Source of the DNA: Rickettsiales bacterium
Lineage (GTDB): Bacteria; Pseudomonadota; Alphaproteobacteria; Rickettsiales; UBA3002
Direction: 5' to 3'
Assembly: GCA_046154225.1 (NCBI GenBank)
Contig: JBJXEM010000006.1
Location: 46,124-110,123, forward strand
DNA length: 64,000 nucleotides
The notes under the pieces are model-generated. The model worked only from the letters and a program-made list of their open reading frames with translations. It did no database searches and was not told the DNA's origin. Position numbers and translations under genes: made by a program. Positions 4,848 to 56,370 of this stretch are shown one piece after another. The stretch's first letter is position 1, and each line of letters begins with the position of its first letter.

Positions 4848-5631
4848 CTAAAATAGCTTCCGATACGTGAGATTGCATTGTTTAGTGCTGTCGGTAAGCC
4901 GATAACTCGCCACCAAATCATTATTAGCGCTACTGCCATCATCCGCTGCGGCACAGGCATTGTTCCAATAGCGGGCAATAAGTTTGCCTGAAGCGGGCTT
5001 GCCATCATCCAGCTTGGTGTCGATATTCCACGCTTCTTCCGGCTTTAATGGTGGCCCCGATGGTCCTGAAAGCTCAATAAAATTACCATAATCGAGCGCA
5101 TAGGCCGATGCATCACCAGGAAAATTTACGGCATGTGAAATATAATAGCCGCCATTCGTCAGTTTACTGCGCGGCGTTTCGGTTCCATAAGTGAAGGTGC
5201 CTGAAGCGTTGAGTAAGCCTGAATAGGTTCCCTCAATTAGCCCTGCCAAGATTAACTGTCTCCAGAATTGCAGACCCTCATCCGTGGCCCCGGCAACACC
5301 AGCAAAGTTTGTAGGTACTAACCCGTCACCATTGCCATCGCAGGTTCCGGCCGCCGAAGCGCCGCCGCACGCCGTGCTTTTACCCCAAAACGCCGTTGCG
5401 TTGGTCATATCGCCGGGGATGGCAAAATATTTATCACGAAACGTTTGGCTGGCGGTGTAAAAGCGTGAAAATTCCGTACTCACTGCTCGCAACTCCGCTG
5501 CGCGGATGAGTGATTGGCCAGCGAGAATACCTCCGGTGAGCAATCCAAGAATTACCAATACAATCGATAATTCAACGAGGCTGAACCCCAGTTTTAGCGG
5601 GGGGGGGGGGTAAATTCTGAATCGTTTTCAT
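4848..5631 (-). CDS. prepilin-type (type IV pilin / T2SS pseudopilin-like) protein, leader out of frame at a C12 tract
   Basis: The frame ending at 4848 encodes ...LKLG|FSLVELSIVLVILGLLTGGILAGQSLI (Gly-Phe cleavage site, Glu+5, hydrophobic helix) followed by a Cys-containing variable domain. The only ATG (5631, MKTIQNL) is out of frame by one base across the C12 run. With 11 or 14 C the product would read MKTIQNLPPPPLKLGFSLVELS.... The gene is visibly AT-richer than its neighbours. Confidence 0.75.
5599..5610. repeat. G12 (C12 on the coding strand) homopolymer inside the pilin leader
   Basis: Counted directly: 12 consecutive G at 5599-5610. Confidence 0.95.
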
Positions 5632-5668
5632 AAATAAATAATACATGTTATTTATCCCGCAATCAAGC

Positions 5669-7339
5669 TCAATGCCGAAAATGCCTCGTACACGTCATCA
5701 GCATGGCGATGCCGTGTTTCTTGGCAGCCGCGATGACTTCGGCGTCGCGCACTGAGCCGCCGGGCTGGATGAGGAGGGTGATGCCGGCAGCAGCGGCGAG
5801 CTCCACATTGTCGGCGAAGGGGAAAAATGCATCCGATGCTAAGGTCGCGCCGCGCGGGTCGTGCCCATGCTGGCGGGCTTTTTCGATGGCGATGCGCACG
5901 GAATCGACGCGCGACATTTGCCCGGCGCCAACGCCGATGGTGGCGCCGTTTTTCACCAGCACAATGGCGTTGGATTTGACGAATTTGACCACATGCCAGG
6001 CGAGGGCGGCATCGGCCATGGCGCTGGGATTAAGGGGGCCGCCGCTGGCTTGCGTCCATGCGCTGGCGGGGGTGGAAGTGCGGTCTTGCTGCTGTACCAA
6101 ATACCCACCGCTGATGGCCTGAATCATCCACCCAGCTAATGGCGAAGCGTGGGTTTCAGGCTGGCACACGAGCAGGCGCAGGTTCTTTTTTGCGGCCAGT
6201 TTTTCGCGCGCTTCGGCGGTGAATTCCGGCGCGACGATGACTTCTAAAAACAAACTGCCAATGGCCTCGACTAGTGCCACATCCACCGGTTGGTTGACGG
6301 CAAGGATACCGCCGAAGGCGCTGACGGGGTCGGACGCTAGGGCTTTGATGAAGGCGTCCACGGCTTTCGCGGCGATGGCAACGCCGCACGGATTTGCATG
6401 TTTAATCAGCACGGCGATAGCAGTTTCGTTAGCGACAGCATAACTGCTGGCAATCGCCCACGCCGCATTGGCATCGGCGAGGTTGTTGTAGCTGAGTTCC
6501 TTGCCTTGCAGCTGCTGCGCGTTTGCGATGCCGCCTTTGGCATCGAGCCGGTTGTACAGGGCGGCCGACTGATGCGGGTTCTCGCCGTAGCGCAGGGGTT
6601 GGCCGAGTGCGGCGTCGAGCAAGTAGGCGGGGAAGACTCCTCCCCCCATCGGGGGGAGGTTGGGCCTGCCGTCCGAAGCCTTGGCGTAGGATGGTGGGGG
6701 GCTGCCATGAGGCGCAGAGCTTGGTTCAGCCCCCCACCTAGCCCCCCCCCGATGGGGGGAGGAATTACCGAGCCAACTACTAATCAGTGTGTCGTAGCTG
6801 GCGCAGCGGGCGAAGGCTTTGGCGGCGAATTTTTTGCGTTCGGTGAGGGGGACAGCACCGCCATTTTGCTGCAGCAATTGTTGCAGCATTTCGTAGTCGG
6901 CGACATCGACCACGACGGTGACAGATTCATGGTTTTTGGCGGCCGCGCGAATCATGGCGGGGCCACCGATATCGATGTTTTCGACCAAATGGTCGTAGTC
7001 GGTGGTGGCGTTCAGGGTGGTTTCGAACGGGTAGAGATTCACCACCAGTAAATCGATCATGCCGATATTGTGGGCGTTCGCAGATTGCATATGCGAGGGC
7101 TCGCTGCGCCGTGCCAGCAACCCGCCATGGATGGCGGGGTGCAGGGTTTTTACGCGCCCGTCCATCATCTCGGGGAACTGCGTCACCTCCGCCACATCGC
7201 GCACGGGGATGCCTGCTTCCGCGAGGGTTTTAGCGGTGCCGCCGGTGGAAAGCAGTTCGATGCCTTGTGCCACCAGAAAATGCGCAAACGGAATCAGCCC
7301 GGTTTTGTCGGAGACGGAAAGAAGCGCGCGGCGGATCAT
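5669..7339 (-). CDS. purH: bifunctional AICAR formyltransferase / IMP cyclohydrolase PurH (556 aa) with a repeat-derived in-frame insertion in the interdomain linker
   Basis: N-terminal MGS-like domain (ALLSVSDKTGL, MDGRVKTLHP). AICARFT domain (LRYGENPHQ, KHANPCG, GAGQMSRVDS, C-terminal MTCTRHFRH). An extra segment of about 43 aa (NSSPHRGGARWGAEPSS...PPMGGG) lies between ISSWLG and VFPAYL. Confidence 0.92.
   Translation of the reverse strand: MIRRALLSVSDKTGLIPFAHFLVAQGIELLSTGGTAKTLAEAGIPVRDVAEVTQFPEMMDGRVKTLHPAIHGGLLARRSEPSHMQSANAHNIGMIDLLVVNLYPFETTLNATTDYDHLVENIDIGGPAMIRAAAKNHESVTVVVDVADYEMLQQLLQQNGGAVPLTERKKFAAKAFARCASYDTLISSWLGNSSPHRGGARWGAEPSSAPHGSPPPSYAKASDGRPNLPPMGGGVFPAYLLDAALGQPLRYGENPHQSAALYNRLDAKGGIANAQQLQGKELSYNNLADANAAWAIASSYAVANETAIAVLIKHANPCGVAIAAKAVDAFIKALASDPVSAFGGILAVNQPVDVALVEAIGSLFLEVIVAPEFTAEAREKLAAKKNLRLLVCQPETHASPLAGWMIQAISGGYLVQQQDRTSTPASAWTQASGGPLNPSAMADAALAWHVVKFVKSNAIVLVKNGATIGVGAGQMSRVDSVRIAIEKARQHGHDPRGATLASDAFFPFADNVELAAAAGITLLIQPGGSVRDAEVIAAAKKHGIAMLMTCTRHFRH
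6639..6762. repeat. G/C-hairpin-bounded palindromic element inside purH
   Basis: Terminal near-palindromes CCTCCCCCCATCGGGGGGAGG (6639-6659) and CCCCCCCCCGATGGGGGGAGG (6742-6762). Internal 11-bp stem GTGGGGGGCTG/CAGCCCCCCAC. Boundaries are approximate. Confidence 0.75.
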
Positions 7340-31225: not shown

Positions 31226-31489
31226 ACCGATTCTCCGCTGCATTTCTAGGGACGCCTAGGGCGTCGGAACCTTCGCGCCGTTGCTCATGTAGCGCTGCTA
31301 CACTCCGCCCGTCGCGAAGAACCCTCCTACTATGCGCCTCCTATAAATGCAGCTATTTTGTGGGGTGTAAGCAAGAGAAAACGATCTGCGTGTAGTATCA
31401 ATCGTCATCAAAACGTCACACTGGCGGTGGCCCGAATGCGCTATGATGCATCTGAATAGCCGGATCAACCGGCAAGGGAGCAAACCACG

Positions 31490-32560
31490 ATGGATTTTCT
31501 TTTTGGCTGGGCCGAGTGGGCTTTTACGAAAGTAAAAAATTTCTTTTTTCCGGGCGACGAGCAGCATGTGCAAGCGGCCATGCAGACCGTATCGGAAAAA
31601 ATATTTTCGAGTAAACAAGCACAGGAATGGCTGAAAAGCTCGGGCTGGAGCGCCTGCGAAAATGTGGTGGCCTCGATGCGCAACCCGGCCACCCGCGAAG
31701 CGGCGATTTTCGACGCGATCAACAGTTTCTACCAATGCAACGACAACGCGGCAAAAATTCAGGAACGCCTTGCGTGCCACGGGCTGAATGGCGGCACCAC
31801 GACCCGCAGCTATCTGTTGAATTCCGGGCCCGGCAGTATCGGCCAGGGCAAAAGCAACCACCAGGCGATGCTACTGGTCGACGAAGGCGCCAGCCCCCCG
31901 CGCATTACACTGGCGTTCCGCGGCATGAACCCGTTTTCGGAATCGATTGGCGTGGGCGTGGGGCTCGCCCAAGCGGCGTTTGGCAACAAGGCGGAAGGAT
32001 TCCAACGTGAAGCCGATTTATTCTGGCAAAGCGCCGGGCCGGAGGTGCAGCGCATTATCGCCGAGGTAAGTGCGCGCACCGGGGCGGCGCCCGAAATCAC
32101 CGTGGCCGGGCACTCTTACGGCGCGGATGCAGCAGCGCGGATGATCCCGAAACTGGCGCAAATCATGCCGAAAACCCGGCTTCATTATATTGGCTATGGC
32201 GGCATCCAAAGCTTCACGCGCGCCGAGCGCGACCAAATTCAGGCCGCCTGTACCAGTGCGGTGCAATATATCGCGAGCAGTGATTTCGTCAAAGGTCTCG
32301 GTTTTGGCTACACGGTTGGCGAACAACGTAACATTCCCTCGAACGCTGGTCATGCCGATTACGGCCCGACCGGCAATGTGGCGTCCCTGATGGAAGCGCT
32401 GCAAGACATGATGCAGCGCGACCCCAAACATGTGGAAGCGCTGGCGAACAAAGTAGTGGCTGATTTCAAACGCGATAGCACCGCCACCATGAATGAACTG
32501 GCGGCGCTTGCCGCCCAAATTCCTCGTAGCGGTACGGTAAGCCAAACTTCCGTAAGCTAG
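31490..32560 (+). CDS. alpha/beta-hydrolase, class-3-lipase-like protein (356 aa)
   Basis: LAFRGMNPF (like the xAFRGT strand of the Lipase_3 family) and the nucleophile elbow VAGHSYGADAA (GHSxG). No signal peptide. Confidence 0.55.
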   Translation: MDFLFGWAEWAFTKVKNFFFPGDEQHVQAAMQTVSEKIFSSKQAQEWLKSSGWSACENVVASMRNPATREAAIFDAINSFYQCNDNAAKIQERLACHGLNGGTTTRSYLLNSGPGSIGQGKSNHQAMLLVDEGASPPRITLAFRGMNPFSESIGVGVGLAQAAFGNKAEGFQREADLFWQSAGPEVQRIIAEVSARTGAAPEITVAGHSYGADAAARMIPKLAQIMPKTRLHYIGYGGIQSFTRAERDQIQAACTSAVQYIASSDFVKGLGFGYTVGEQRNIPSNAGHADYGPTGNVASLMEALQDMMQRDPKHVEALANKVVADFKRDSTATMNELAALAAQIPRSGTVSQTSVS

Positions 32561-32997
32561 CGCCGCGCGGCGAAAAAATCCGTCAGTAACTGGCCGCATT
32601 CGGTTGCCATCACGCCGCCCACTATTTCCGGCACATGGTGACAAGTGGGGTGCGAAAACACCCGTGCGCCGTGCTCGACGCCGCCGGATTTTGGGTCGTA
32701 CGCCCCGAACACGATTTTCCTGATTTTGGCGAGGCTCGCCGCCTGCGCGCACATGGCGCAGGGCTCGAGCGTGACAAAAAGCGTGCACTCACTCAGATAC
32801 TTAGAGCCAGTTATCCCCATCGCCGCGCGCAGCACCAGCAGCTCGGCATGCTGGGTGGCGTCGCTTTGCTGTTCCACCTGGTTATGGGCCTGCGCCAGTA
32901 CCGTGCCGTCGCCCGCGACCACGCAGGCGGCGATTGGCACCTCGCCGCGTTCGGACGCGGCATGGGCGAGGGTGATTAGTTGGGACATTAATGTCAT
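32557..32997 (-). CDS. tadA: tRNA adenosine(34) deaminase TadA
   Basis: HAELLVLR and PCAMCAQA zinc motifs. Start chosen at 32997 (MTLMSQL) to give about 146 aa. Confidence 0.85.
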   Translation of the reverse strand: MTLMSQLITLAHAASERGEVPIAACVVAGDGTVLAQAHNQVEQQSDATQHAELLVLRAAMGITGSKYLSECTLFVTLEPCAMCAQAASLAKIRKIVFGAYDPKSGGVEHGARVFSHPTCHHVPEIVGGVMATECGQLLTDFFAARR

Positions 32998-33072
32998 GAA
33001 AGCGTCATACTTCGCATGCACCAGAAATGCTAGTAATCCGGCAGAAAACACATCAGTAAACAGGCAAGCGAC

Positions 33073-35187
33073 GTGCATTCAGACCCCATCGAGCCGCAGG
33101 ATTGGCGGCAGTTAAGCGACCCGGTGCTACAAGAATATGCCGTAAGGGAGGCGCAGCTTCGCGCGCAGCACAAGGCGGGCCTGTTGCCCGGACCTATGGT
33201 GATGCCGAATGGGTATGTGGTGGATGGCGTGGATTTCGCTTCCTATGCAGGCGCGGCCAAAGAGCTGGCCCGCCGCCATCGGCGAAACGGCACATTGCCG
33301 CTGGTGATGCCGCGATTAAAAAAGCCGCTGCTTGACGGCGATATTTTTAAAAATGGCGAGCTGAATAGCCCGACCTACTACAAGCTGACCAATCAGGACG
33401 TGGAGCGCATTCGCACCCGGCTGCGGGATGTCACGTTGCCGCTACTTGAGCAGGCGGTTGCCAACCGCATTCATCAGCTGATCACGCAGCAGGAAAAATA
33501 CACGCAGGCTGATGGCACAATCCCGCAGTCGGTTCAGCAGGCAACCGAAACGCTGTTGGCCGAATACCGGCCGATGCTCGAGAGAATTCGCCTTTGCCAA
33601 GCATTGAACAAGAAAGAAGTCAGGAAATATGTTAGCCACTTTGGCTACGATGTTGGCGGAAACATCGCGGCGGTGTTGAGCGTCAATAAGCCGTTCACGC
33701 TGGCAAAAACGCTGGCGGCCGTGAGAGAAAAACTGCCTGATATTCAAAAAGAGATACTTTATCAGCTGGTGCCGTGGAGCCGAAACGGGTTCGAAGGGCC
33801 GTCGCCCACGCCGCACCTGCAAGCGTTTTTCAAGCAGGATTTTCAGCAGGTGGTGGCGGCCATGATGCAGCCCGTGCTGGACGAATTGACTGAGGCGTAT
33901 CTGGCAATTGAGCAGAAGAAACAGCATGCCGCTCGCAAGGCCTCGGGTGAACATTTGGTGCCGATTGATTTGGAGTTCCAGCAGGCCCTGCGCAGCGGCA
34001 GAAAAGCCATGCTGCACGAAGCTCGAAAACTTGCGCGCGAAGTGACCGAGGGCGCCACGGAATTTGAAATTGAGTTGTTGGCCGACACGTATCGGGCAAG
34101 CAAAGATGCCGCTTTTGCCTGGGCGGAAAAAGAACGCGTCCGTCGCCAATCGCCCTCCACCACCATCCAGCTGCCGGTCGCTCAGCCAGAATATTCGGTA
34201 GGGCAGCAGCTGCGGCAGACTATGAGCCCGGGCTTTGTGAAGGCGCAGCAAACGCAGATGCAGCAACGCTGGGGCGGGGTGAAGATGGACCGGCGCGACC
34301 CGCCGCAAGCGGCGCTTTCGCCGGTTAGCATGCAGGCATTGTCGATCGCGATTGATGCGCATCTGCCGCTTGCGCTGGCGGCCCATGGGTTTCCGCTGGC
34401 CTGTGCGCAAGCCGTTTCGTTTGAGTTCGTGGCTGATTTGCTGGCAGATGTGCGCGGGCTGGAGCGGGTGAAGTCATCCTATGGCTGCCCCTACCATGCC
34501 ACGCTGACGATTGATAAGCCGCGCTTTGAGGCAGCAATGCAGCAAGCTGGCTTCAGCGATGATAAAAAAATAGCGCTGCGGCGCGACCTGCTGAAAACCA
34601 TCGCCATGATCGCCAAAGAGGCCACCCACAGCCTGACCGATCGGCGCGGCGGGTGCATGAACGTGAAAGGGTATTCGGCCGATTACTTATTTGCCTCGGG
34701 CCATGGCGATAAAAAACGCAACGGCGATGGGCGCGACAGAGGCTCGCATTTCAGACACTTACAGAAATGCTATGACGAAAATGCCGATGGGAAAATGACC
34801 ATCACGATGATTGGTGGGTGGTATTGCCGCATTTCGAATCCGTTTGAAGTGGCGGAGACGTTCAACCGCTTTTTCCATCAGGCAGGGTTGGACGGCGTGA
34901 ATCTGGCGCCGTTGCGTCGTGAGGAAAAAGCGCGGCAGCAGGCGATGGCGACGCCCGAGGATATCCAGCGGCACTTTATGCATCTTCCCAGTTGCTACGA
35001 TAATGCAAACCAACTCACGACAAGATTATTGGCTAAGCCGTATGGCTATTTAGACACCAATCAACGCTACAACACGATTAGCCGCGAGATCACTCAGGGA
35101 GTCGGCAATTTGTTTCAGCAAGGGACGCGGGCTTCCAGAGCGTCCCTGGCGGCACCACCCAAGCAGCAGCAACTGCCCGCCCGCTGA
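33073..35187 (+). CDS. hypothetical protein, 704 aa, no recognisable domain
   Basis: Uninterrupted ORF. Internal duplicated motif HFRHLQKCYDENADG / HFMHLPSCYDNANQL near the C-terminus. The start is uncertain: GTG 33073 has a weak ribosome-binding site, and the first ATG is at 33196. Confidence 0.55.
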   Translation: MHSDPIEPQDWRQLSDPVLQEYAVREAQLRAQHKAGLLPGPMVMPNGYVVDGVDFASYAGAAKELARRHRRNGTLPLVMPRLKKPLLDGDIFKNGELNSPTYYKLTNQDVERIRTRLRDVTLPLLEQAVANRIHQLITQQEKYTQADGTIPQSVQQATETLLAEYRPMLERIRLCQALNKKEVRKYVSHFGYDVGGNIAAVLSVNKPFTLAKTLAAVREKLPDIQKEILYQLVPWSRNGFEGPSPTPHLQAFFKQDFQQVVAAMMQPVLDELTEAYLAIEQKKQHAARKASGEHLVPIDLEFQQALRSGRKAMLHEARKLAREVTEGATEFEIELLADTYRASKDAAFAWAEKERVRRQSPSTTIQLPVAQPEYSVGQQLRQTMSPGFVKAQQTQMQQRWGGVKMDRRDPPQAALSPVSMQALSIAIDAHLPLALAAHGFPLACAQAVSFEFVADLLADVRGLERVKSSYGCPYHATLTIDKPRFEAAMQQAGFSDDKKIALRRDLLKTIAMIAKEATHSLTDRRGGCMNVKGYSADYLFASGHGDKKRNGDGRDRGSHFRHLQKCYDENADGKMTITMIGGWYCRISNPFEVAETFNRFFHQAGLDGVNLAPLRREEKARQQAMATPEDIQRHFMHLPSCYDNANQLTTRLLAKPYGYLDTNQRYNTISREITQGVGNLFQQGTRASRASLAAPPKQQQLPAR

Positions 35188-35304
35188 CGGCCGCAGTCCG
35201 CACGAGGGTGAGCAGATTGGGCGGAAATGTCATGCAAGTGTAATACTAATACGCAATTTTATTGCTAGAATGCTTATCAATAATAGCTACATTAGAAGGC
35301 AATA

Positions 35305-36198
35305 ATGGCCGACATCAAAGAAAAACTTCGTGAAATAGGACATAGTGGTTTTGATAAAGAGCCGCACCCCGAATTCACCTTCGATAAATCATTGCTTTCG
35401 TCGCGCGACCCGTTAACGCAGGCCGAGATTGATTATGTGAATATGCAGGTAGGCGATGCTGTCAGAAAACTGGCGGTTGAATATGGCTGCGAGCCCCAAG
35501 ATGCAGACAAGATCGAAGCGCGTTACTGGTATAGCAAAAAGGGACACGGGTTTTTCGGAAACGATCACGTCTGGGGCATCTTTTACGATCGCGACCAAAG
35601 CAATTTTGATGAGAAGCAGCTCGATGAACCGGTGCCGTACGCGATCAAAGATTTCATGCGTGAATTCGAACGCGCCATGGGCGAAGTCAATTTCAATAAA
35701 GGTAATACCACGCCTCTTGCAGAGGGCGGTCGTCGCGCCGTTGGCTTTTCACAACATGGATGGCACGGCAATTATGCTTTTATGCGCGGCGACTCACGCG
35801 ATGTGCTTCTACCCATGGTAAGGTTAATTCAGCAGTTTGATCCCGAGTTCACGATCCGTTTCGATGTGCCCGAGCAATATACCTCTTGCTACGACGGGAT
35901 CAGCGAAAAAGACCTGTCGGGCATGGCAAACGCGCATGCCTCCGTGTTCTGGATCGACCGCGAATGGGCGCAGGGCGAATTAGACAGACGTGCGCAGGGC
36001 GAGCGTTGGCGAATCATGCAAGAGCGTATCGACCATAGTCGGGTTGAAGCACAGGTGCTCGGTAAACCACAGCCCTTACTCACGCGCTTGAAAATAGCAC
36101 TGTCTAGCAAACATGTGAACACGGTCGACCCCGAAATGCCGTATGGGGGGGCAGAACCGCTGAACCCTACCGCTTGCGGAACGCTTCGAGGGAGATAA
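35305..36198 (+). CDS. hypothetical protein, 297 aa, AT-richer ORFan
   Basis: ATG is preceded by GAAGG and an AT-rich 115-bp upstream region. The gene is visibly lower in GC than the flanks. It contains QYTSCYDGISEKD, reminiscent of the CYD motif in the upstream ORF. Confidence 0.55.
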   Translation: MADIKEKLREIGHSGFDKEPHPEFTFDKSLLSSRDPLTQAEIDYVNMQVGDAVRKLAVEYGCEPQDADKIEARYWYSKKGHGFFGNDHVWGIFYDRDQSNFDEKQLDEPVPYAIKDFMREFERAMGEVNFNKGNTTPLAEGGRRAVGFSQHGWHGNYAFMRGDSRDVLLPMVRLIQQFDPEFTIRFDVPEQYTSCYDGISEKDLSGMANAHASVFWIDREWAQGELDRRAQGERWRIMQERIDHSRVEAQVLGKPQPLLTRLKIALSSKHVNTVDPEMPYGGAEPLNPTACGTLRGR

Positions 36199-36730
36199 CT
36201 TTCTCGTCGTTCGCGGCTTTGGTTTCTTCGCTGGGGGCATCTTCTTCAAAGGCGGCCATGGAGGGTTTTTCGGAGCCGTTTTTGCCGGTGACGGGGCACG
36301 CGACGGGTTCTTCGGCATTGCCGTTTGAAGCCGTGGATTTTGCGCCGTTGTTTGTGTCGCTCGCGCCTGCCGGTTTTTTGCCGTGGAATTGCAGGCCGAA
36401 TTTAATGCTGGGGTCGGCGAACGCCGTGAGTGCATCGAACGGCACCACCAGTTTTTCCGGGATGTTGTTGAAGCTGAGCATGATGGAAAACTGCGTGTCG
36501 GTAATTTTCAAATCCCAAAACTGGTGCTGCACCACGATGGTGATTTCCTCGGGGTAGCGCGCCTTTAACTGCGGCGAAATGCTGACGCCCGGGAAGTTGG
36601 TTTGAAACGAAATGAAGAAATGATGCTCGCCCGGCAGTCCGAATTTGTCGATATGCACTAACGCCTGGCGCACCACGCCGCGCATCGCCGAGTCGATCAT
36701 GCCGGGATAATCTATTGTTTCTTGGCTCAT
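36167..36730 (-). CDS. sspB: ClpXP adaptor SspB (alphaproteobacterial type)
   Basis: SspB fold region (GLPGEHHFFISFQTNFPGVSISPQLKARYPEEITIVVQHQFWDL...VVPFDALTAFADPS), an acidic/Ser-rich linker and a basic C-terminal tail ISLEAFRKR. Confidence 0.78.
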   Translation of the reverse strand: MSQETIDYPGMIDSAMRGVVRQALVHIDKFGLPGEHHFFISFQTNFPGVSISPQLKARYPEEITIVVQHQFWDLKITDTQFSIMLSFNNIPEKLVVPFDALTAFADPSIKFGLQFHGKKPAGASDTNNGAKSTASNGNAEEPVACPVTGKNGSEKPSMAAFEEDAPSEETKAANDEKVISLEAFRKR

Positions 36731-36750
36731 GGGCTTCTTATACAGTGGTT

Positions 36751-36774
36751 AGAGTCGAGAGTCGAGAGTCGAGT
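36751..36774. repeat. tandem heptamer array (AGAGTCG x3) between ssrA and sspB
   Basis: AGAGTCGAGAGTCGAGAGTCGAG read directly from the sequence. Confidence 0.85.
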
Positions 36775-36784
36775 GAAATTAACT

Positions 36785-37260
36785 AAAGTGTTTCAAGTGC
36801 CACCCGGGAGGCGACCGCCGACCCGCGAAAAATCATCCTACGCTAAAGCTACGGACGACGCTCCTTCGCCTAAGGCCGCCTTCGACCGGCGTAAGCCGTC
36901 CGAAGCCGGAGGCGAAGGGCGGTGGGGGGATTCTGTTGCCCAGCTCCCCCCGGGCTGCGTTTACGAGCTAGAGCTCGTCAAGCCACACTAAGCGGCGAGA
37001 CGGGCTGCTACGACGTTGTTGTCGTTAGCTGCAACGAGTGCTACGTTGTCGTTGGCACTTGAAAAGTGATCCGATTATGGGAGATCACCCCAAGCAAAAG
37101 CAGCGCCTTTATTGCGGTTGTCGATGCTAATTCACCCCCACAAAGCCACCGCGTTGCGGTGGCTTTGTGGAGGTGCCGGGCTCTGCCCCCGGGTCCAATC
37201 CGACTATTCCACGATACGTTTATTGCTATAGCCACTTGCGTGACAGTTCTAAATATAAGG
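36785..37260 (-). ncRNA. ssrA: tmRNA (ssrA), circularly permuted two-piece gene: acceptor piece - spacer hairpin - coding piece
   Basis: On the minus strand, ...GGAC-CCGGG-GGCAGAG-CCCGG-CACCUCC-A ends at 37168. A 27-nt hairpin follows at 37141-37167. GGGGGUGAAUUAGCAUCGAC starts at 37139. GGGGGUG pairs with CACCUCC and gives a G3:U pair. The tag frame 37056-36988 reads ANDNVALVAANDNNVVAARLAA*. The outer ends are approximate. Confidence 0.8.
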
Positions 37261-37382
37261 CAAAACGGCCGCGGGTTCAAGCCGCAACTGCGGTCAAAAA
37301 TCGACAATCCGACACGCAACCTTCACGCAACCGTCATCAAACTGTCACATCTGTTTGGTAGGGTGAAGGCTAGGAGAAACCC

Positions 37383-39869
37383 ATGGTCACTAAACCAGCT
37401 ACTACTATCCCACTAACGGACGCAGCACGTTATGCTTCGGCACTGGCCCAGTTGGGGCGTCCGCTTAGCCAAACGGAAGTGGCGCTGTTGAACCCGCAAA
37501 CCGGCAAGCTTGAAGTGGCGGATCTGAACGGGATTGCTTCTGCTCGCTTAGGCCAGTTGCGCACATTGCTACCCGCAGGCTATCAGGAGCAGTCGCGCCA
37601 GATTTCCCAGCTGCTCGAGAATTTCCAATCGACTTCGACCATTGAATTGCCCAATGGCCTAACATGGGAGGCAATCTTCGGTGCGGTTGGGTCTTACGTC
37701 AAAAAACCGGCAGGCGAAGCCTACACGCAGGCAGAAAAATTCATTGACGAGAATAAAGATAAAATCGAATTTTTGCGCGCGGCGGTTTCAGCCGGAACCA
37801 GCCTAAAAAACGGGGCCAGCAATACCGAAGCATTCTTTGCCAGCTGGAACAACGGCGCGAATGCGTCACAGAATTTTTTTGGGATTGGCCGTCAGCTCGA
37901 TATCATTAAATCCACCATCGGTGCGCGCAAGCTAACCAAGGCACAATGCGATGCTGTCGCCGACACAATTGCGCTTGCCACCTACCAGTCGGTGCAAAGT
38001 AACGGCACCGCATCGGCCGCCCTTGCCGTGTCGCCGGGCGACGCAAAGCCTAATTTTATCGATAACGTATGGTCGCTCGGCCAACGGCTGGGATCGCTTT
38101 TGGTGCATGCGCTGCCCGCTGAATGGGGCCAGTATGTACTGCAATGGGCGAACTACGCCTATGGCGGCTTTAAAGATTGGGATGCGGCAGGCGTCGCAGC
38201 GAAACAGGCCTTGGCGAACGAACCGCAGGCCGTAAGTTGGGATACGCTTGCCAAACAAAGTGCGCAAGAACGCGTGCGCAAAGCACAGCTCAGCGCCACC
38301 ACTCAAGGCCGTGCGGATGCGGCGGAAATGCTTGCCGGAGTGTCGTCAGTTGAAGGTGTTACGAATGTACCCGGCATTGCCAAGCTGGTAGCGGAAGGTG
38401 GGCCGTTCCGTGGCGCGCCCGAGAAAGACGCTAACGGCAAAACGGTTCAAAAACTCTACCTCGCACGCTATGTGAATGGCACGTTGCAAAAAGACCCGAT
38501 TCTGGTGACGGGCCCGGATGGGAAACAACGGCAAATGACCGTGGCCGATGAACAGACCCAGGCCAGTGCCAATATGGCGCCTGTGCTCGATCGCGGCGTG
38601 ACCCTCTTGAATTTGGCAAGCTACGCGGGCGGGGCAACGACGGATGCGGCGCTGACCTATGGCGGTGCCGCCCTGGCCATGACGACAGGTTACGGTATGC
38701 AGGAGGGCTTCCTGCGCCAGACACTGGGCGGCCATGCTGCGGCAGGACGTTCCGATCATCTTTATAACGGCAAATTAAAGCTCGGCAGCCAACACGCGTT
38801 GGAAGAAAAAGCCGAAGCCGCGACGAAGCGCGCCGATGCATTGAAAAACGGCGCACGTCGCTGGCCCTGGGAGCGTACGGAAGCGCAATACCGCGAACAG
38901 GCCGATGAGTTCACAAAGAAAGCCGCAAAAATTGAGGTTCGCAGTGACCATCAGCTGAAAGTGGCGATTGAGCGCAACGATCGATTCATCGACCCCAAAA
39001 CGAGCTTCAGCCCACTGAATGCGCACGCTGAAGAGTCACTCATCAAGGGCAGCAGCTGGTTCGAAAAAGCCCGTAGCGCCGTGTGGAATTCGCCGCGCAT
39101 CGTGGGCCGCTGGATGGGCGACGGGGCTGGAAAAGTTACCGATTTCGTAGCGTACCGCTCTGCGCAAGCGGGTCGCTTTGCAGTGGGCCTCGTTGAGAAA
39201 TTACCCGGTGGCGAAAAAGCGACCGAAGCCGTGGCTTGGGGAGTTAGCAAAGTTGCACCAGCACTGGTGCCTGTAGCCGAAGTAGGGGGGCGTCTGGTTG
39301 CGCCGGTTGGGGCTGCCGTTGGCGTGGGTCAGGCCGGCTACGATGTTTACCACGGCGTCAGCACCGGTGAGAAACACCACACCATTAAAGGTGTCGCGAG
39401 CTTCGGTACGATCGGTGCATCGGCCATGGCCGGTTTCTGGATGGGGGCAGGCGGCGGGACGCTCGTGCTGCCTGTAATTGGCACGATTGGCGGCGGTGTG
39501 GTGGGCGCAATTGGCGGCGCAGCGACCGGGGCACTTGCTGCCTGGGGCGGCGGCATGGTCTATGATAAACTTGATGTTGGCTACCAGATGCGTGAAGCGG
39601 AGCGGAACGCACGCACGGCGGAAATGCTGGCCAAGCGTGAGAAGCTGGCGGCCGACCCGGGCATTGCGATTGCCGTGAGCGATGTCGATGCTAAAACCCA
39701 GGCAGCACAGGCGCAGGCAAAATTGGCCGCCGCAAAAGTGCACACCACAGGTCTTGGTTCGATGACCAGCGTTGAAAATTTGATGATGTTAAATCCCGTA
39801 ACATTGCCGTTTGTTGCGGCCTCGAAAATGGCGGCGGGCATCACATCTTTCTTCACCGGAAAAGCCTAA
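37383..39869 (+). CDS. hypothetical protein, 828 aa, with C-terminal glycine-zipper membrane-insertion-like region
   Basis: ATG is preceded by TAGGAGA. No signal peptide. Residues around 640-720 form Gly/Ala-rich hydrophobic helices (GASAMAGFWMGAGGGTLVLPVIGTIGGGVVGAIGGAATGALAAWGGG). Confidence 0.6.
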   Translation: MVTKPATTIPLTDAARYASALAQLGRPLSQTEVALLNPQTGKLEVADLNGIASARLGQLRTLLPAGYQEQSRQISQLLENFQSTSTIELPNGLTWEAIFGAVGSYVKKPAGEAYTQAEKFIDENKDKIEFLRAAVSAGTSLKNGASNTEAFFASWNNGANASQNFFGIGRQLDIIKSTIGARKLTKAQCDAVADTIALATYQSVQSNGTASAALAVSPGDAKPNFIDNVWSLGQRLGSLLVHALPAEWGQYVLQWANYAYGGFKDWDAAGVAAKQALANEPQAVSWDTLAKQSAQERVRKAQLSATTQGRADAAEMLAGVSSVEGVTNVPGIAKLVAEGGPFRGAPEKDANGKTVQKLYLARYVNGTLQKDPILVTGPDGKQRQMTVADEQTQASANMAPVLDRGVTLLNLASYAGGATTDAALTYGGAALAMTTGYGMQEGFLRQTLGGHAAAGRSDHLYNGKLKLGSQHALEEKAEAATKRADALKNGARRWPWERTEAQYREQADEFTKKAAKIEVRSDHQLKVAIERNDRFIDPKTSFSPLNAHAEESLIKGSSWFEKARSAVWNSPRIVGRWMGDGAGKVTDFVAYRSAQAGRFAVGLVEKLPGGEKATEAVAWGVSKVAPALVPVAEVGGRLVAPVGAAVGVGQAGYDVYHGVSTGEKHHTIKGVASFGTIGASAMAGFWMGAGGGTLVLPVIGTIGGGVVGAIGGAATGALAAWGGGMVYDKLDVGYQMREAERNARTAEMLAKREKLAADPGIAIAVSDVDAKTQAAQAQAKLAAAKVHTTGLGSMTSVENLMMLNPVTLPFVAASKMAAGITSFFTGKA

Positions 39870-47347: not shown

Positions 47348-47384
47348 GCGGCGTTCCTCTGCTCTATGAGTGGCAGGAGATTAT

Positions 47385-49319
47385 ATGGGTACTGAACCAT
47401 CAACAGAAATGCCAAGCGGCGAAGATTACGATGCCGTGCAACAATCGCTGCAAAAAGCTTTCAAAGTGGCCGATGAAAGCTTTGCTAAGCATTTTGCCGA
47501 CTGGTGGTCGGCGATGGGTACGGATGCGATGAATAAACAATTAAGTGGCGAGATCGATATTCCGGACTCGCGCTTTTCGCGCCGTCGTCTGGTCAACGCC
47601 CTCGGTGAAAGCCGTAAGCGACTGGAAGCGCGAATGCAAAAAGTCAGCAATCAGAATGCTTTTATCGAAGAATGCTACGATTCGATTGAAGCGGAAATGG
47701 AAGAGCTGTTTTTTGTCACGAATAACCGTGCCGAAGCCAAAATGGTGCAGGATTATTTTTTACGCTTCCTGGCAGCAGCCTCGGGTGAGCTCGAATTATC
47801 CGGCCACATGGAAAAAGAAGTGGCGGAGTATTGTCAGGCATTCAAGGAATATTACGATATTGGTTTTGAGTCGTACGACGACCTGCGTGAGATTGTGCAT
47901 GAAGTAAGCGGCGGCACCACTCACAGCATCGTTGCGCTGGCGATGTCTCAGCACGCATCGGATGAATCTTCCAAACGTGGGATCAGTAAACTGCCCAAGC
48001 TCTCGGAGCAGTCGCAACCCGCCCGGGATATGATCAAAGCCATGACCGTTCCTGCCTATAATGCGCTGCTGGCGAGCGAATATGGGCTCAGCTACGAACC
48101 TAACCAAGTATTTCACTACAGCACTCCTTGGATTTGTTATCAGGCGCGTGAACTTTCAGGGGCACAGTATGAACTTAATCTGCCGCGCCGTTTCAGCCGA
48201 TCGCAGCAGCAAACCAATGCGATTGAAGGGGTGAAACTCGAGCGTGAATTGATGCGTCATGTCAGCGAATTGATTGCCAAAGAAGGAAACATATTCGGGC
48301 TGATTGATGCGTCCGTCATGTTTAATCATAAACGGGCCGAAGCCAATCAGGTACCGGAAGGGTTTCCGGACATGCTGCACGAAGCCTGTGCCCGGGCCGA
48401 ACATATTGCGGCCGAGCAATTCAAAGAAATCTACAACAGTCATATTCAACGATGGGCCAGCCTGCCCGCCGCGAAAAGCCGCGAGCTTGGCAAAAACGCC
48501 TGGCCGCTGCTTGACACCTGGGACATGGATAACGGCGTCGCCAGAGATATCGGCCACTACCTGACGGAGGCCGTGATCAATGCCTCGTCGCCGTTGCGCG
48601 TGGCGCGTCGCGCCGAACAAATAGTGGATGAAATGGCCGCCGATGTCATGCTCGGCTGCGTCAGCCCGGTACAATTTCGCTATGCCGAACAATATCTGAA
48701 AACCCTGCGGCGCGAACTGGGGTCGCAACTGCACGATGTTGGTCAGTTCCAGGCAGAAGCGTTTGCGCCGTTACGTCAGTTAGAAGAAAAATGCCGTTAT
48801 GCCTATGAGAGTGCAGAAGTGCTGCGCGAATGGGTACTTGACAGTACCGACCATAAATTCGACCGTCTGATGCAGGAACAATATTTGAAGCATGCGTTGA
48901 AAACCGGGCAGGCAATCCACCAGCTTAACCCGAATGAATGGGCCGACACCATCATGCCGAAAACGGCAAAATCATATCGGAAGTTGCTCAAAAATTCTGG
49001 GTTTTACCAGCGCGGCAAGGACCATGTGCTGCTACCCGTCATTGTGCGGCATGCGCGTCGGGTGGTCGATGCTGAGCTGGGGGCGGCACCTACATCTGAG
49101 GCAGGGGCTTCGAATGAGGAAATTACCGATTTTGAAACACGCTACTGGGAGCGCACGCGGGCATTAGTACAGGAAGCGCTCTCTGCCATGCCAGACCGTG
49201 ATGCGCTGACGGGAAACAGTCATCGTCGCTATCCTTTTAGTGCCGAGGATATGCATGAAGCCATCACCGACCTTGATGGCAAAGCAGCGCTGTTGACGCA
49301 TCGCGGTACGCGTCATTAA
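47385..49319 (+). CDS. hypothetical protein, 644 aa, AT-richer ORFan
   Basis: ATG 47385 is preceded by AGGAG. Acidic, predicted helical, no signal peptide and no motif I recognise. Confidence 0.55.
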   Translation: MGTEPSTEMPSGEDYDAVQQSLQKAFKVADESFAKHFADWWSAMGTDAMNKQLSGEIDIPDSRFSRRRLVNALGESRKRLEARMQKVSNQNAFIEECYDSIEAEMEELFFVTNNRAEAKMVQDYFLRFLAAASGELELSGHMEKEVAEYCQAFKEYYDIGFESYDDLREIVHEVSGGTTHSIVALAMSQHASDESSKRGISKLPKLSEQSQPARDMIKAMTVPAYNALLASEYGLSYEPNQVFHYSTPWICYQARELSGAQYELNLPRRFSRSQQQTNAIEGVKLERELMRHVSELIAKEGNIFGLIDASVMFNHKRAEANQVPEGFPDMLHEACARAEHIAAEQFKEIYNSHIQRWASLPAAKSRELGKNAWPLLDTWDMDNGVARDIGHYLTEAVINASSPLRVARRAEQIVDEMAADVMLGCVSPVQFRYAEQYLKTLRRELGSQLHDVGQFQAEAFAPLRQLEEKCRYAYESAEVLREWVLDSTDHKFDRLMQEQYLKHALKTGQAIHQLNPNEWADTIMPKTAKSYRKLLKNSGFYQRGKDHVLLPVIVRHARRVVDAELGAAPTSEAGASNEEITDFETRYWERTRALVQEALSAMPDRDALTGNSHRRYPFSAEDMHEAITDLDGKAALLTHRGTRH

Positions 49320-53420: not shown

Positions 53421-53462
53421 CTTTTGCTTTTTTTGTCGGGCCCAATCGGCTAAACTCGACCC

Positions 53463-54674
53463 ATGACAGCAGCGACGATGGCAATGCCCAGGGGTGGCAA
53501 TATTTTCACGGCGCGGCAGTGGCGCGGGCGGCCTTATCTTATCAGCCCCGTGGCCGATTTTCTGATGGTGGGCGGGCTGGCGCTGATTCTCATTGTGCTG
53601 ATGGCTTTTTGGGTGCCGCGCGGCGTGATTAACGACGTGACGGCGCTGTCATTTTCACCGCTACTGGCGGCGCTGCTAACCTACCATATTTTCGCCATCA
53701 ATTACCCGCATTTCGCCTATTCTTACCAGATTGCCTACCGGCGCATGCATTATATTCGCGCGGCAAGCGGCCTGCGGCGCATAATCCGCTGGCGCTATGC
53801 GTTTGCATTGGTGATTTTCCCCATTCTGTATGTGGCCTATTGCGCTTATGCGCTGGCGTTAAAGGAACATTCCGGACTAGTGCTGCTGGGGCTGCTCATC
53901 AACCTCATGTATTTCACCGTCGGCTGGCATTACTGCAAACAGAGCTTTGGTATTTTGTTGGTGCTGTCGGCCTTGAAGGGCCTGTATTTTACGTCGGGCG
54001 AGCGGCGTGTACTGTTAGTGCATGCAGTGCTGGCCTGGCTGATGGCGTGGCTGGGCGGGAATATCTACCTGTTTGGCGACCAGTTTTGGGGGTTGCCCTA
54101 CCACTCGGCAGGCCTTAGCCGCTATGTGGCCGACTGGCAGCTCGAGACGTTCCACACATTGGGGGTGAACCTGACCTTCATGCTTGGGGTGCTGTGCGCT
54201 GTGATGCTAGTCCGCAGCGCCTATCGGGCCAGAAAATTCCCGTCGCTTACCGGGGCGCTCGGCTATTACATGATGTACCCGCTGATGCTGGTCTCGAGCG
54301 TGTTTCACCCCCTGTGGCTGTGGGTTTTACCCGCCATGCATTCGCTGCAATATTTGCTGTTCGTGTTCGCCTACCGGCGCGGCGAAGTGGTGCACATGCT
54401 GCCTGAACAAAACCACCCAAGCCCCGCGCCCAGCCTTCGCCTGCACGCCATCGCCGGTTTTGCAGCGCTTGGCGTGCTTATCGGCGCCATCCAGTTCAGC
54501 TGGCTGCCAAATTTGCTCGACGCGCTGGTCAACCCGGACAACAAACTCCACGTGCCCCTGTTGTTCATGGCGCTGTGCCAATTATTCGTGAATATTCATC
54601 ACTACTTCATCGACAACGTCATCTGGCGGCGCGAAAACCCCGAAGTGGGGCGCTATTTGATGGGGCGGGGCTAA
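53463..54674 (+). CDS. polytopic membrane protein with His-rich motifs, unknown function (403 aa)
   Basis: About 10 hydrophobic helices. Recurrent His motifs WHYCKQSFG, PAMHSLQY and VNIHHYFIDNVIWR suggest a membrane metalloenzyme. I cannot name the family. Confidence 0.55.
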   Translation: MTAATMAMPRGGNIFTARQWRGRPYLISPVADFLMVGGLALILIVLMAFWVPRGVINDVTALSFSPLLAALLTYHIFAINYPHFAYSYQIAYRRMHYIRAASGLRRIIRWRYAFALVIFPILYVAYCAYALALKEHSGLVLLGLLINLMYFTVGWHYCKQSFGILLVLSALKGLYFTSGERRVLLVHAVLAWLMAWLGGNIYLFGDQFWGLPYHSAGLSRYVADWQLETFHTLGVNLTFMLGVLCAVMLVRSAYRARKFPSLTGALGYYMMYPLMLVSSVFHPLWLWVLPAMHSLQYLLFVFAYRRGEVVHMLPEQNHPSPAPSLRLHAIAGFAALGVLIGAIQFSWLPNLLDALVNPDNKLHVPLLFMALCQLFVNIHHYFIDNVIWRRENPEVGRYLMGRG

Positions 54675-54756
54675 CACAAAACCCTTCCAATTCTCAAAAA
54701 ACCCGCTAAAAAGCTCGCTCGAAACGCGCGAGCCAGCAGGTCGCGCAAGCCATTAG

Positions 54757-55890
<1,134 letters not shown>

Positions 55891-55893
55891 ATT

Positions 55894-56370
55894 ATGTGTC
55901 GTTATGCATCTTATTTTTTTCTAATTATTGTTCTCATATTTCCGACCCTAGCATCTGCGTTAAGTTGCGGTCCAGATCTGGAGGCAACGTTTAATGAGGC
56001 ATTTAACGGCGCAGATATTATAGCCGTTGTCCAGCCTTTGGAGTCTTTCGATTCGGCAGTTGGCACTCTTACTGAAAACTGTGCAGGTTGTGCGTCCACC
56101 GCGAAGCTACAATTTCAGGTGCAGCGTTCTTATTTAGGTGTGCCTGCAGGCAAGAAAATAATGGTGCAAACCCCTTTCTATGAAACGCGTAAAGTTTACC
56201 AAGCGAAAGAGGGAGAATATTTTTTGGTCGCTAATTCCTACAATGATTCTTACATATTAGCACCTTGTGGCGGGCATATGTTATTTTCTATCGATACGCA
56301 GGATGTTAAAATGCTTGAGTTAGGAATGCGGGTGCAAAATCGTCTGGCGGCCGCAAAAACAAAACCCTAA
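55894..56370 (+). CDS. hypothetical secreted Cys-containing protein, 158 aa, strongly AT-richer ORFan
   Basis: Signal peptide MCRYASYFFLIIVLIFPTLASALSC. Six Cys residues. Clearly lower GC than ilvC, which ends 4 nt upstream. Confidence 0.5.
   Translation: MCRYASYFFLIIVLIFPTLASALSCGPDLEATFNEAFNGADIIAVVQPLESFDSAVGTLTENCAGCASTAKLQFQVQRSYLGVPAGKKIMVQTPFYETRKVYQAKEGEYFLVANSYNDSYILAPCGGHMLFSIDTQDVKMLELGMRVQNRLAAAKTKP

Follow-up and report, generated by a model that had tools for sequence, protein, structure and literature searches.

That pilus proteins can be switched by slippage within the codons of their export signal is textbook knowledge, with pilC of Neisseria as the model, and to our knowledge nearly all the documented cases come from host-adapted pathogens. 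Here we describe a type IV pilin-like gene of a Rickettsiales bacterium, situated between purH and mutL in a stretch of 64,000 nucleotides (nt) of contig JBJXEM010000006.1 (this whole stretch is called the window, and all positions refer to it), whose leader-peptide codons contain an uninterrupted run of 12 C (C12) that puts the leader out of frame with the pilin. The layout is that of a classic slippage ON/OFF switch, and in a single assembled genome it is indistinguishable from a one-base assembly error.

In Neisseria pilC1 and pilC2 a G/C homopolymer likewise lies in N-terminal export-signal codons of a type IV pilus protein and turns it ON and OFF by slippage (Jonsson et al. 1991, as cited in PMC2193922), and for poly-G/C tracts of Neisseria, that of the PilC signal peptide among them, switching rates of 1e-2 to 1e-4 are reported (PMC2193922). 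PilC, however, is a tip adhesin and assembly factor with a Sec signal peptide, whereas a prepilin with a class III leader is encoded here; moreover, experiments have demonstrated variation of the pilC tract, which is also conserved, while the present tract occurs in just one gene of one metagenome-assembled genome (MAG). The frame arithmetic of the locus is that of Campylobacter jejuni capA, which is ON at G11 and OFF at G10 and G12. There the rates climb with tract length, about 10-fold from G8 to G11, within a measured range of 1e-4 to 4e-3 per division, and the change from G12 to ON takes place at 2.9e-3 per division (PMC3401435). The number of poly-G tracts in C. jejuni is given as about 29 per genome (PMC4965091). 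In contrast to these poly-G genes, of which capA encodes an autotransporter, the target here is a pilin, mutL is adjacent and 64 kb hold a single tract.

The C12 tract and the prepilin reading frame

The tract reads G12 on the forward strand and C12 on the reverse strand, which is the coding strand of the pilin gene (Table 1). It is the longest homopolymer of the window, where no other exceeds 9, the runners-up being a C9 at 6742-6750 within purH and then several 7-mers; since dinucleotide-preserving shuffles of the window put the expected number of runs of at least 11 C at 0.03, such a tract is not what chance would provide. As recorded, the frame opened by the ATG (MKTIQNLPPPPAKTGVQPR) runs through 19 codons and ends at a TGA (ATG AAA ACG ATT CAG AAT TTA (CCC)4 GCT AAA ACT GGG GTT CAG CCT CGT TGA). 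When the tract was rebuilt in silico, 11 C gave a prepilin of 260 amino acids (aa) and 14 C one of 261 aa, beginning with MKTIQNLPPPP(P)LKLG/FSLVELSIVLVILG, where the slash marks the cleavage site (a longer stretch after cleavage is FSLVELSIVLVILGLLTGG, with 11 or 14 C), and tract lengths of 10, 12, 13 and 15 led to a stop within 11-20 codons. The frame of the pilin body is kept by lengths of 3n+2 (11, 14), from which the recorded 12 is off by one base. In contingency loci a homopolymer, 7-8 bases long or more, stands in the promoter or the 5' coding region and switches between ON and OFF frames with its length; C12, which forms leader codons 8-11, has this layout. A preliminary description of the locus had stated that C12 throws a pilin-like leader out of frame, that no other tract of such length occurs in the 64 kb and that 11 or 14 C would restore a prepilin leader with its cleavage site; the frame arithmetic was reproduced exactly, and the other two statements agree with the homopolymer count, with the rebuilt frames and with a match to the family TIGR02532.

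Against NCBIfam TIGR02532 (prepilin-type cleavage/methylation) the repaired protein scored 21.6 bits, passing the cut-off of 16.3, and against Pfam PF07963 (N_methyl) it scored 18.7, slightly below the cut-off of 21.2; its prepilin N-methylation motif is the sole one in the six frames of the window. The cleavage site in the 11- or 14-C frame, LKLG/FSLVE, shows the expected residues, G (or A) at -1, F at +1 and E at +5. F+1 and E+5 were invariant in an alignment of 63 homologous sequences, in which two Cys pairs were also conserved or almost so, and the 120 homologs listed all had F at +1, preceded by G or A. A confident AlphaFold2 model built with the 63 homologs (mean predicted local distance difference test score 93.9, predicted template modelling score 0.84) consists of a helix at residues 13-63 followed by a β-sheet head. 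Its best Foldseek match in the PDB was 9iuf_A, CofA of enterotoxigenic Escherichia coli in the type IVb pilus (E 1.2e-4, probability 1.0, template modelling score 0.43/0.51), and the other top matches were PilA1 of Clostridioides difficile, crystal structures of CofA and FimA of Dichelobacter nodosus (4tsm, 3s0t and 6t8s being among the top entries). Because PDB sequences searched by means of the family profile gave weak matches to the N-terminal helix alone (Geopilin, E 0.29) and none beyond it, the fold search was needed for the head domain, which by the model is a divergent pilin head; the protein as a whole is predicted to be type IV pilin-like, and its mature part, at 245 aa, is large.

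With type IV pilins and type II secretion pseudopilins the protein has in common the G/F cleavage-methylation motif, E+5, a hydrophobic alpha1-N, an alpha-beta head and conserved Cys pairs. It differs from them in that the mature protein is large, of type IVb-like size, while most members of its family have a very short type IVa-like leader, and in that dozens of family members are encoded per genome, spread out between housekeeping genes. Its closest relative (P0002, locus L001; 72% identity) likewise lies directly downstream of purH. Between the pilin gene and this ortholog the nonsynonymous divergence (dN) was 0.18 and the synonymous divergence (dS) was saturated, with a dN/dS of about 0.07, and the lone lesion of the gene is one base at the expected slippage site, promoter and ATG being intact. 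Judged from these rates the pilin body is under purifying selection and would be usable when ON; 245 stop-free codons together with the low dN/dS argue against an old pseudogene.

Table 1. Features of the pilin-like gene, with positions in the window
Feature	Position	Strand	Basis
-35-like hexamer TTGATT of the gene's own putative promoter, beginning 2 nt past the purH stop	5661..5666	-	promoter scan; TTGATTGC at equal ATG distance in the ortholog L001
-10-like hexamer TATTAT, ending 6 nt 5' of the ATG	5638..5643	-	promoter scan; TANNNT peak of the family
ATG, most likely the true prepilin start	5629..5631	-	spacing of the -10 box; leader alignment with the ortholog
ATT, start in the NCBI annotation (MYPPPPLKLG..., 255 aa), judged unlikely	5613..5615	-	without Shine-Dalgarno sequence; family promoter geometry
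C12 homopolymer (G12 on the forward strand) in leader-peptide codons	5599..5610	-	sequence; in-silico tract lengths; shuffles
Predicted prepilin peptidase site, GGG TTC, G(-1)/F(+1)	5583..5588	-	TIGR02532; homologs
TGA ending the ATG frame after 19 codons at 12 C	5572..5574	-	sequence; translation
Mature pilin-like body, 245 codons and stop, unbroken; predicted long N-terminal helix, beta-sheet head, conserved Cys pairs	4848..5585	-	translation; AlphaFold2; Foldseek; dN/dS

Promoter, start codon and the leader of the ortholog

A promoter scan upstream of the ATG found TTGATT-N17-TATTAT, a sigma-70-like arrangement with 9/12 matching positions. The ortholog has TTGATT-N17-TATTTT-N6-ATG with identical spacing, and TTGATTGC is found at the matching distance from the ATG in both genes. 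When 247 non-redundant family genes were aligned at their ATG, the consensus upstream was TTGAC...TATAAT, its -10 box spanning -12 to -7, and a TANNNT beginning exactly at -12 was present in 74 of them against a background of about 5. The position profile of the same genes contained no purine-rich Shine-Dalgarno (SD) signal, an SD-like motif occurring in 36/247. Leaderless mRNAs need a 5'-terminal AUG, and the geometry suggests that transcription starts at or adjacent to the A of the ATG, so that a leaderless mRNA would be produced from the pilin gene and as the norm in its family.

The leader of the ortholog, MRANSFFNKLPPHKLA, aligns with that of the window gene, MKTIQNLPPPPLKLG. Its codons, ATG AGA GCG AAT TCG TTT TTT AAC AAA CTC CCT CCC CAC AAA CTG GCA and then TTC, lead directly into FSLVEL, and where the window gene has its tract, the C-rich sequence of the ortholog is interrupted, CTCCCTCCCCAC (CTC CCT CCC CAC); when MKTIQNL-PPPP-LKLG is laid against it, the ortholog passes in frame through this C-rich stretch. 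In one paralogue (L048) the leader ends in HAPLKLG/F, encoded by GCC CCG CTG AAA CTA GGA TTC, and because the window gene shares this PLKLG end, its CCG CTA AAA CTG GGG is taken as coding in the pilin frame, and the 3' end of the tract as Pro-coding. The in-frame leader of the ortholog, the position of the promoter, the family-wide geometry and the PLKLG end of the paralogue thus favour the ATG, which is most likely the true start, the annotated ATT being an annotation rescue and the 12-C allele truly out of frame. A start at the CTG just 5' of GGG TTC was also considered and is unlikely, as it has no SD sequence, the -10 box fits a 5'-terminal AUG and the ortholog leader is in the ATG frame.

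Explanations of the out-of-frame tract

The explanation which we favour, and to which we give about an even chance, is that the tract is hypermutable and works as a de facto ON/OFF switch that was recorded in its OFF state. The gene would be a functional member of an expanded type IV pilin-like family, transcribed from its own sigma-70-type promoter after purH into a probably leaderless mRNA starting at the ATG, and an ancestral C-rich, Pro-coding stretch of its leader would have turned into an uninterrupted C run through a few substitutions, slippage or both. G/C runs of 11-14 bases slip in replication at about 1e-4 to 1e-2 per division in measured bacteria, and by analogy with them a tract of 12 bases is long enough to be intrinsically hypermutable. 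Because runs this long slip in those bacteria, the gene may flicker in the population: cells with 11 or 14 C would make the prepilin, cleave it at LKLG/F and have it available for assembly, whereas out-of-frame lengths (10, 12, 13) would give a short product of 11-19 aa in place of the pilin, the consensus having captured the 12-C OFF form. Variation of the tract length in the population, 12 as the true majority length and the leaderless mRNA are all three what we infer. The preliminary description had also read the tract as a candidate slippage switch, and the anatomy of the gene, its intact and constrained open reading frame (ORF) and the length of the tract speak for that reading, but the tract proved not to be conserved among relatives.

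This non-conservation is one of several points that weigh against a switch. Neither the ortholog nor the sampled paralogues carry the tract, so there is no sign of selection keeping one. Within the 75 nt 5' of the mature N-terminus, none of 269 family genes (from 157 loci) had a homopolymer longer than 7, the longest being 7 (A or T) with no G/C run above 6, and an evolved family-wide switch was rejected on this count. Since, in addition, the corresponding stretch of the ortholog is interrupted, C12 is probably a private and young feature and not a family design. Established contingency loci are usually conserved in their tracts among strains and concern several genes per genome, and the 64 kb studied contain one such tract only. 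C. jejuni is without mismatch repair, and slippage may be slower here than in that species, the organism encoding mutL next door. A second sampling of the species was not found in a protein search of 5.8 billion sequences, where the NCBI copy matched at 100% and the next at 72%; nor was a second assembly found among GTDB genomes and JGI metagenomes, whose best loci had 59-61% identity, and a contig look-up with the exact protein (P0001) returned no record. As to whether selection keeps the switch or drift produced it recently by accident, a young and opportunistic tract is the more likely, given that relatives lack it. A genuine selected switch in an uncultivated environmental alphaproteobacterium, with one of dozens of leaderless pilin paralogues toggled by slippage and a built-in low +1 read-through of the OFF state, seems unlikely to us; if true, it might serve, for example, to evade pilus-specific phage or to alter adhesion to surfaces or prey, and phase variation of type IV pilins by simple sequence repeats would extend from host-adapted pathogens to free-living lineages. 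If the length variation is real, the locus would offer a clean case of slipped-strand control acting directly on a prepilin leader in such an organism.

Long G/C homopolymers are the least reliable consensus lengths with any sequencing technology, and C12 is the longest of the window. Most cells may accordingly have a true tract of 11 (or 14) C and an ON gene, the extra base being a homopolymer miscall in a tract which would still be mutable; the source is a MAG (by the NCBI name of P0001), the downstream ORF is perfectly intact and constrained, and the record is exactly one base away from the in-frame state. The rest of the window, however, bears no indel damage. All 40 other ORFs covered by a Pfam scan are full-length with complete domains and no split genes, among them a NAD-glutamate dehydrogenase of 1589 aa, and purH is in frame despite its G9 run, from which we conclude that the assembly is not generally indel-prone. 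An error in a 12-mer would, moreover, need a majority of the reads to enter the consensus, unless the population was mixed, which is the phase-variation scenario itself. We hold a miscall to be a serious rival, though less likely than not, and if it occurred the finding is ordinary. An Illumina poly-G artefact is unlikely in particular, for the tract is internal, has orthologous sequence on both flanks and replaces a homologous C-rich stretch. A one-base slippage may also have become fixed in the OFF state, leaving a recent pseudogene that will decay, its loss being tolerated given dozens of paralogues. The family is indeed highly redundant, with at least 41 distinct copies among the fetched loci of one related MAG (JBBKVX01) and 8-20 in others, the tract is private to the window gene, and the frame is broken in the sole available sequence. 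Yet the 245 codons contain no second lesion, promoter and start codon stand intact in the arrangement typical of the family, and dN/dS is 0.07; a 12-base tract also reverts readily, so that a permanent OFF is improbable and hard to tell from switching. We consider fixation in this sense quite improbable.

Expression could also bypass the lesion. The 12-C allele would give some prepilin, at a constitutively low level, if tRNA-Pro made a +1 slip on CCC-C at a PPPP stall or if RNA polymerase slipped. CCC-C is established as prone to +1 shifts, which reach about 1% near the start codon in E. coli (PMC4519876; see PMC7577736), and PPPP is a stall motif dependent on elongation factor P (PMC4519876; PMC7577736). 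A CCC-C run near the start codon, as present here with three consecutive CCC-C contexts at codons 8-10, is the most shift-prone arrangement described for non-programmed tRNA-Pro frameshifting (PMC4519876, PMC7577736), and a +1 shift would read CCG CTA AAA CTG GGG TTC, that is PLKLG/F, exactly the product of the 11-C tract. Frameshifting of this kind, however, is a translational error of at most 1%, and the expected yield of about 1 per cent amounts to leakiness of the OFF state and not to a designed mechanism. Conservation of a shift site is lacking, as one frame serves in the ortholog and in every paralogue sampled, and because of these in-frame orthologs an evolved recoding signal is not suggested. 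A stimulator is not evident at the 12-C site (neither an SD-like sequence upstream nor an A-site codon that is hungry or a stop), and the conserved shift site with stimulators that marks programmed +1 frameshifting of the prfB type was not found in the ortholog and the sampled paralogues. Recoding is thus very unlikely to account for the locus, though by analogy the OFF state may be leaky through a +1 slip at CCC-C. As for the GenBank annotation, it would have the pilin frame translated from the ATT (MYPPPPLKLG/F...) and make the upstream ATG irrelevant. ATT is a permitted but very rare bacterial start (infC), and the public record (P0001), in which the 12-C tract is retained, does hold the resulting 255-aa product. 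Against it, no SD sequence lies ahead of the ATT; the -10 box stands 6 nt before the ATG as in the family, an arrangement suited to a leaderless mRNA with its 5'-terminal AUG; the ortholog leader aligns with the ATG-initiated leader; and such a start is not required by any of the 247 family genes whose ATG is in frame. We find this start hardly credible, and the annotation is itself a point of interest, since the public record saves the gene with a start codon that promoter geometry and ortholog disfavour.

The pilin family and the surroundings of the gene

A homology search with the repaired protein returned more than 5,000 relatives. The mature N-terminus, FSLVELSIVLVILGLLTGGILAGQSLIRA, is almost the same in all 120 relatives listed, with hardly any variation across 29 residues; a G or A stands before it, and the usual leader is very short (such as MKHG, MQRG or MRG). 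The carriers are alphaproteobacterial MAGs labelled Rickettsiales, Azospirillum or Alphaproteobacteria (loci L002-L157), in which the genes stand alone or form tandem arrays with as many as ten members, amid genes such as those for ferritin, nitroreductase and ammonium transporter. The preliminary description had remarked on the "lone" position of the pilin; this proved not to be special, as housekeeping genes are the usual neighbours of family members, which lie apart from assembly genes. The more useful lead may be the family itself, proteins of about 260 aa whose N-terminus hardly varies, encoded by dozens of genes per genome that have a -10 box of the leaderless type. In the paralogues of three loci, L040 (~1120-1200), L045 (~1280-1360) and L054 (~5935-6013), and also in the proteins P0081 and P0089, the mature N-terminus is duplicated as FSLVEP-KRSGVPAKAGIHLQRA-FSLVEL, and the DNA between the two copies forms a GC hairpin, GGCGTCCCCGCGAAGGCGGGGATCC; its sequence suggests that a small palindromic element inserted at the 5' end of the gene and duplicated its target site.

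The pilin gene lies between purH (5669-7339, reverse strand) and the end of mutL (4845, forward strand), and its GC content is 50.8% against 58.7% in the rest of the window (-8 points); position and AT-richness are as previously described. A foreign or recent insertion, which the low GC might have indicated, was rejected, for the ortholog occupies the same place after purH and the family is mildly AT-rich in general (mean -2 GC points relative to the flanks, 72% of 192 genes being AT-richer). Synteny with mutL was uninformative, since L009 alone among the other loci has mutL within reach and its arrangement is different. No pilus or type II secretion assembly gene (PilB/C/D/Q, Gsp), such as would supply the prepilin peptidase and the assembly ATPase or platform that a pilin of this type requires, was present among the 40 large ORFs scanned in the window, which covers 64 kb of a 155-kb contig, in agreement with what had been noted before. 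The genes identified have housekeeping functions and include those for an M16 peptidase, pgi, mutL, purH, a polysaccharide epimerase/dehydratase, glutamate dehydrogenase (GDH) and gshB, together with MotA/B-like, MlaA/C, ThyX, HflK/C-like, DegP, MiaA, IlvB-like, LeuA-like, MreB and PBP2 proteins. Seven large ORFs (300-831 aa) had no Pfam match at E ≤1e-5, four of them at 31.4-39.9 kb (31460-39866), one of 649 aa at 47370-49316 and two at 53454-55920.

At its 3' end the pilin gene converges with mutL, only 2 nt separating the pilin stop codon (4848-4850, reverse strand) from that of mutL, which leaves no room for an intergenic terminator; the sole terminator-like hairpin near this end lies inside mutL (4747-4734, reverse strand). 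On the other side, an element of nested palindromes, about 127 nt long, lies in purH at 6637-6764 (reverse strand); it is rich in G/C runs and includes the C9, the second-longest homopolymer of the window. Its terminal inverted arms of 27 nt (6638-6664 / 6737-6763) are 89% complementary and enclose perfect inner arms of 12 nt (6693-6704 / 6727-6738). Further copies were not found in the window. The element is translated in frame and adds about 44 residues (GNSSPHRGGARWGAEPSSAPHGSPPPSYAKASDGRPNLPPMGGGVFPAY) relative to the Pfam AICARFT_IMPCHas model, and it resembles the in-frame palindromic elements of Rickettsia genes.

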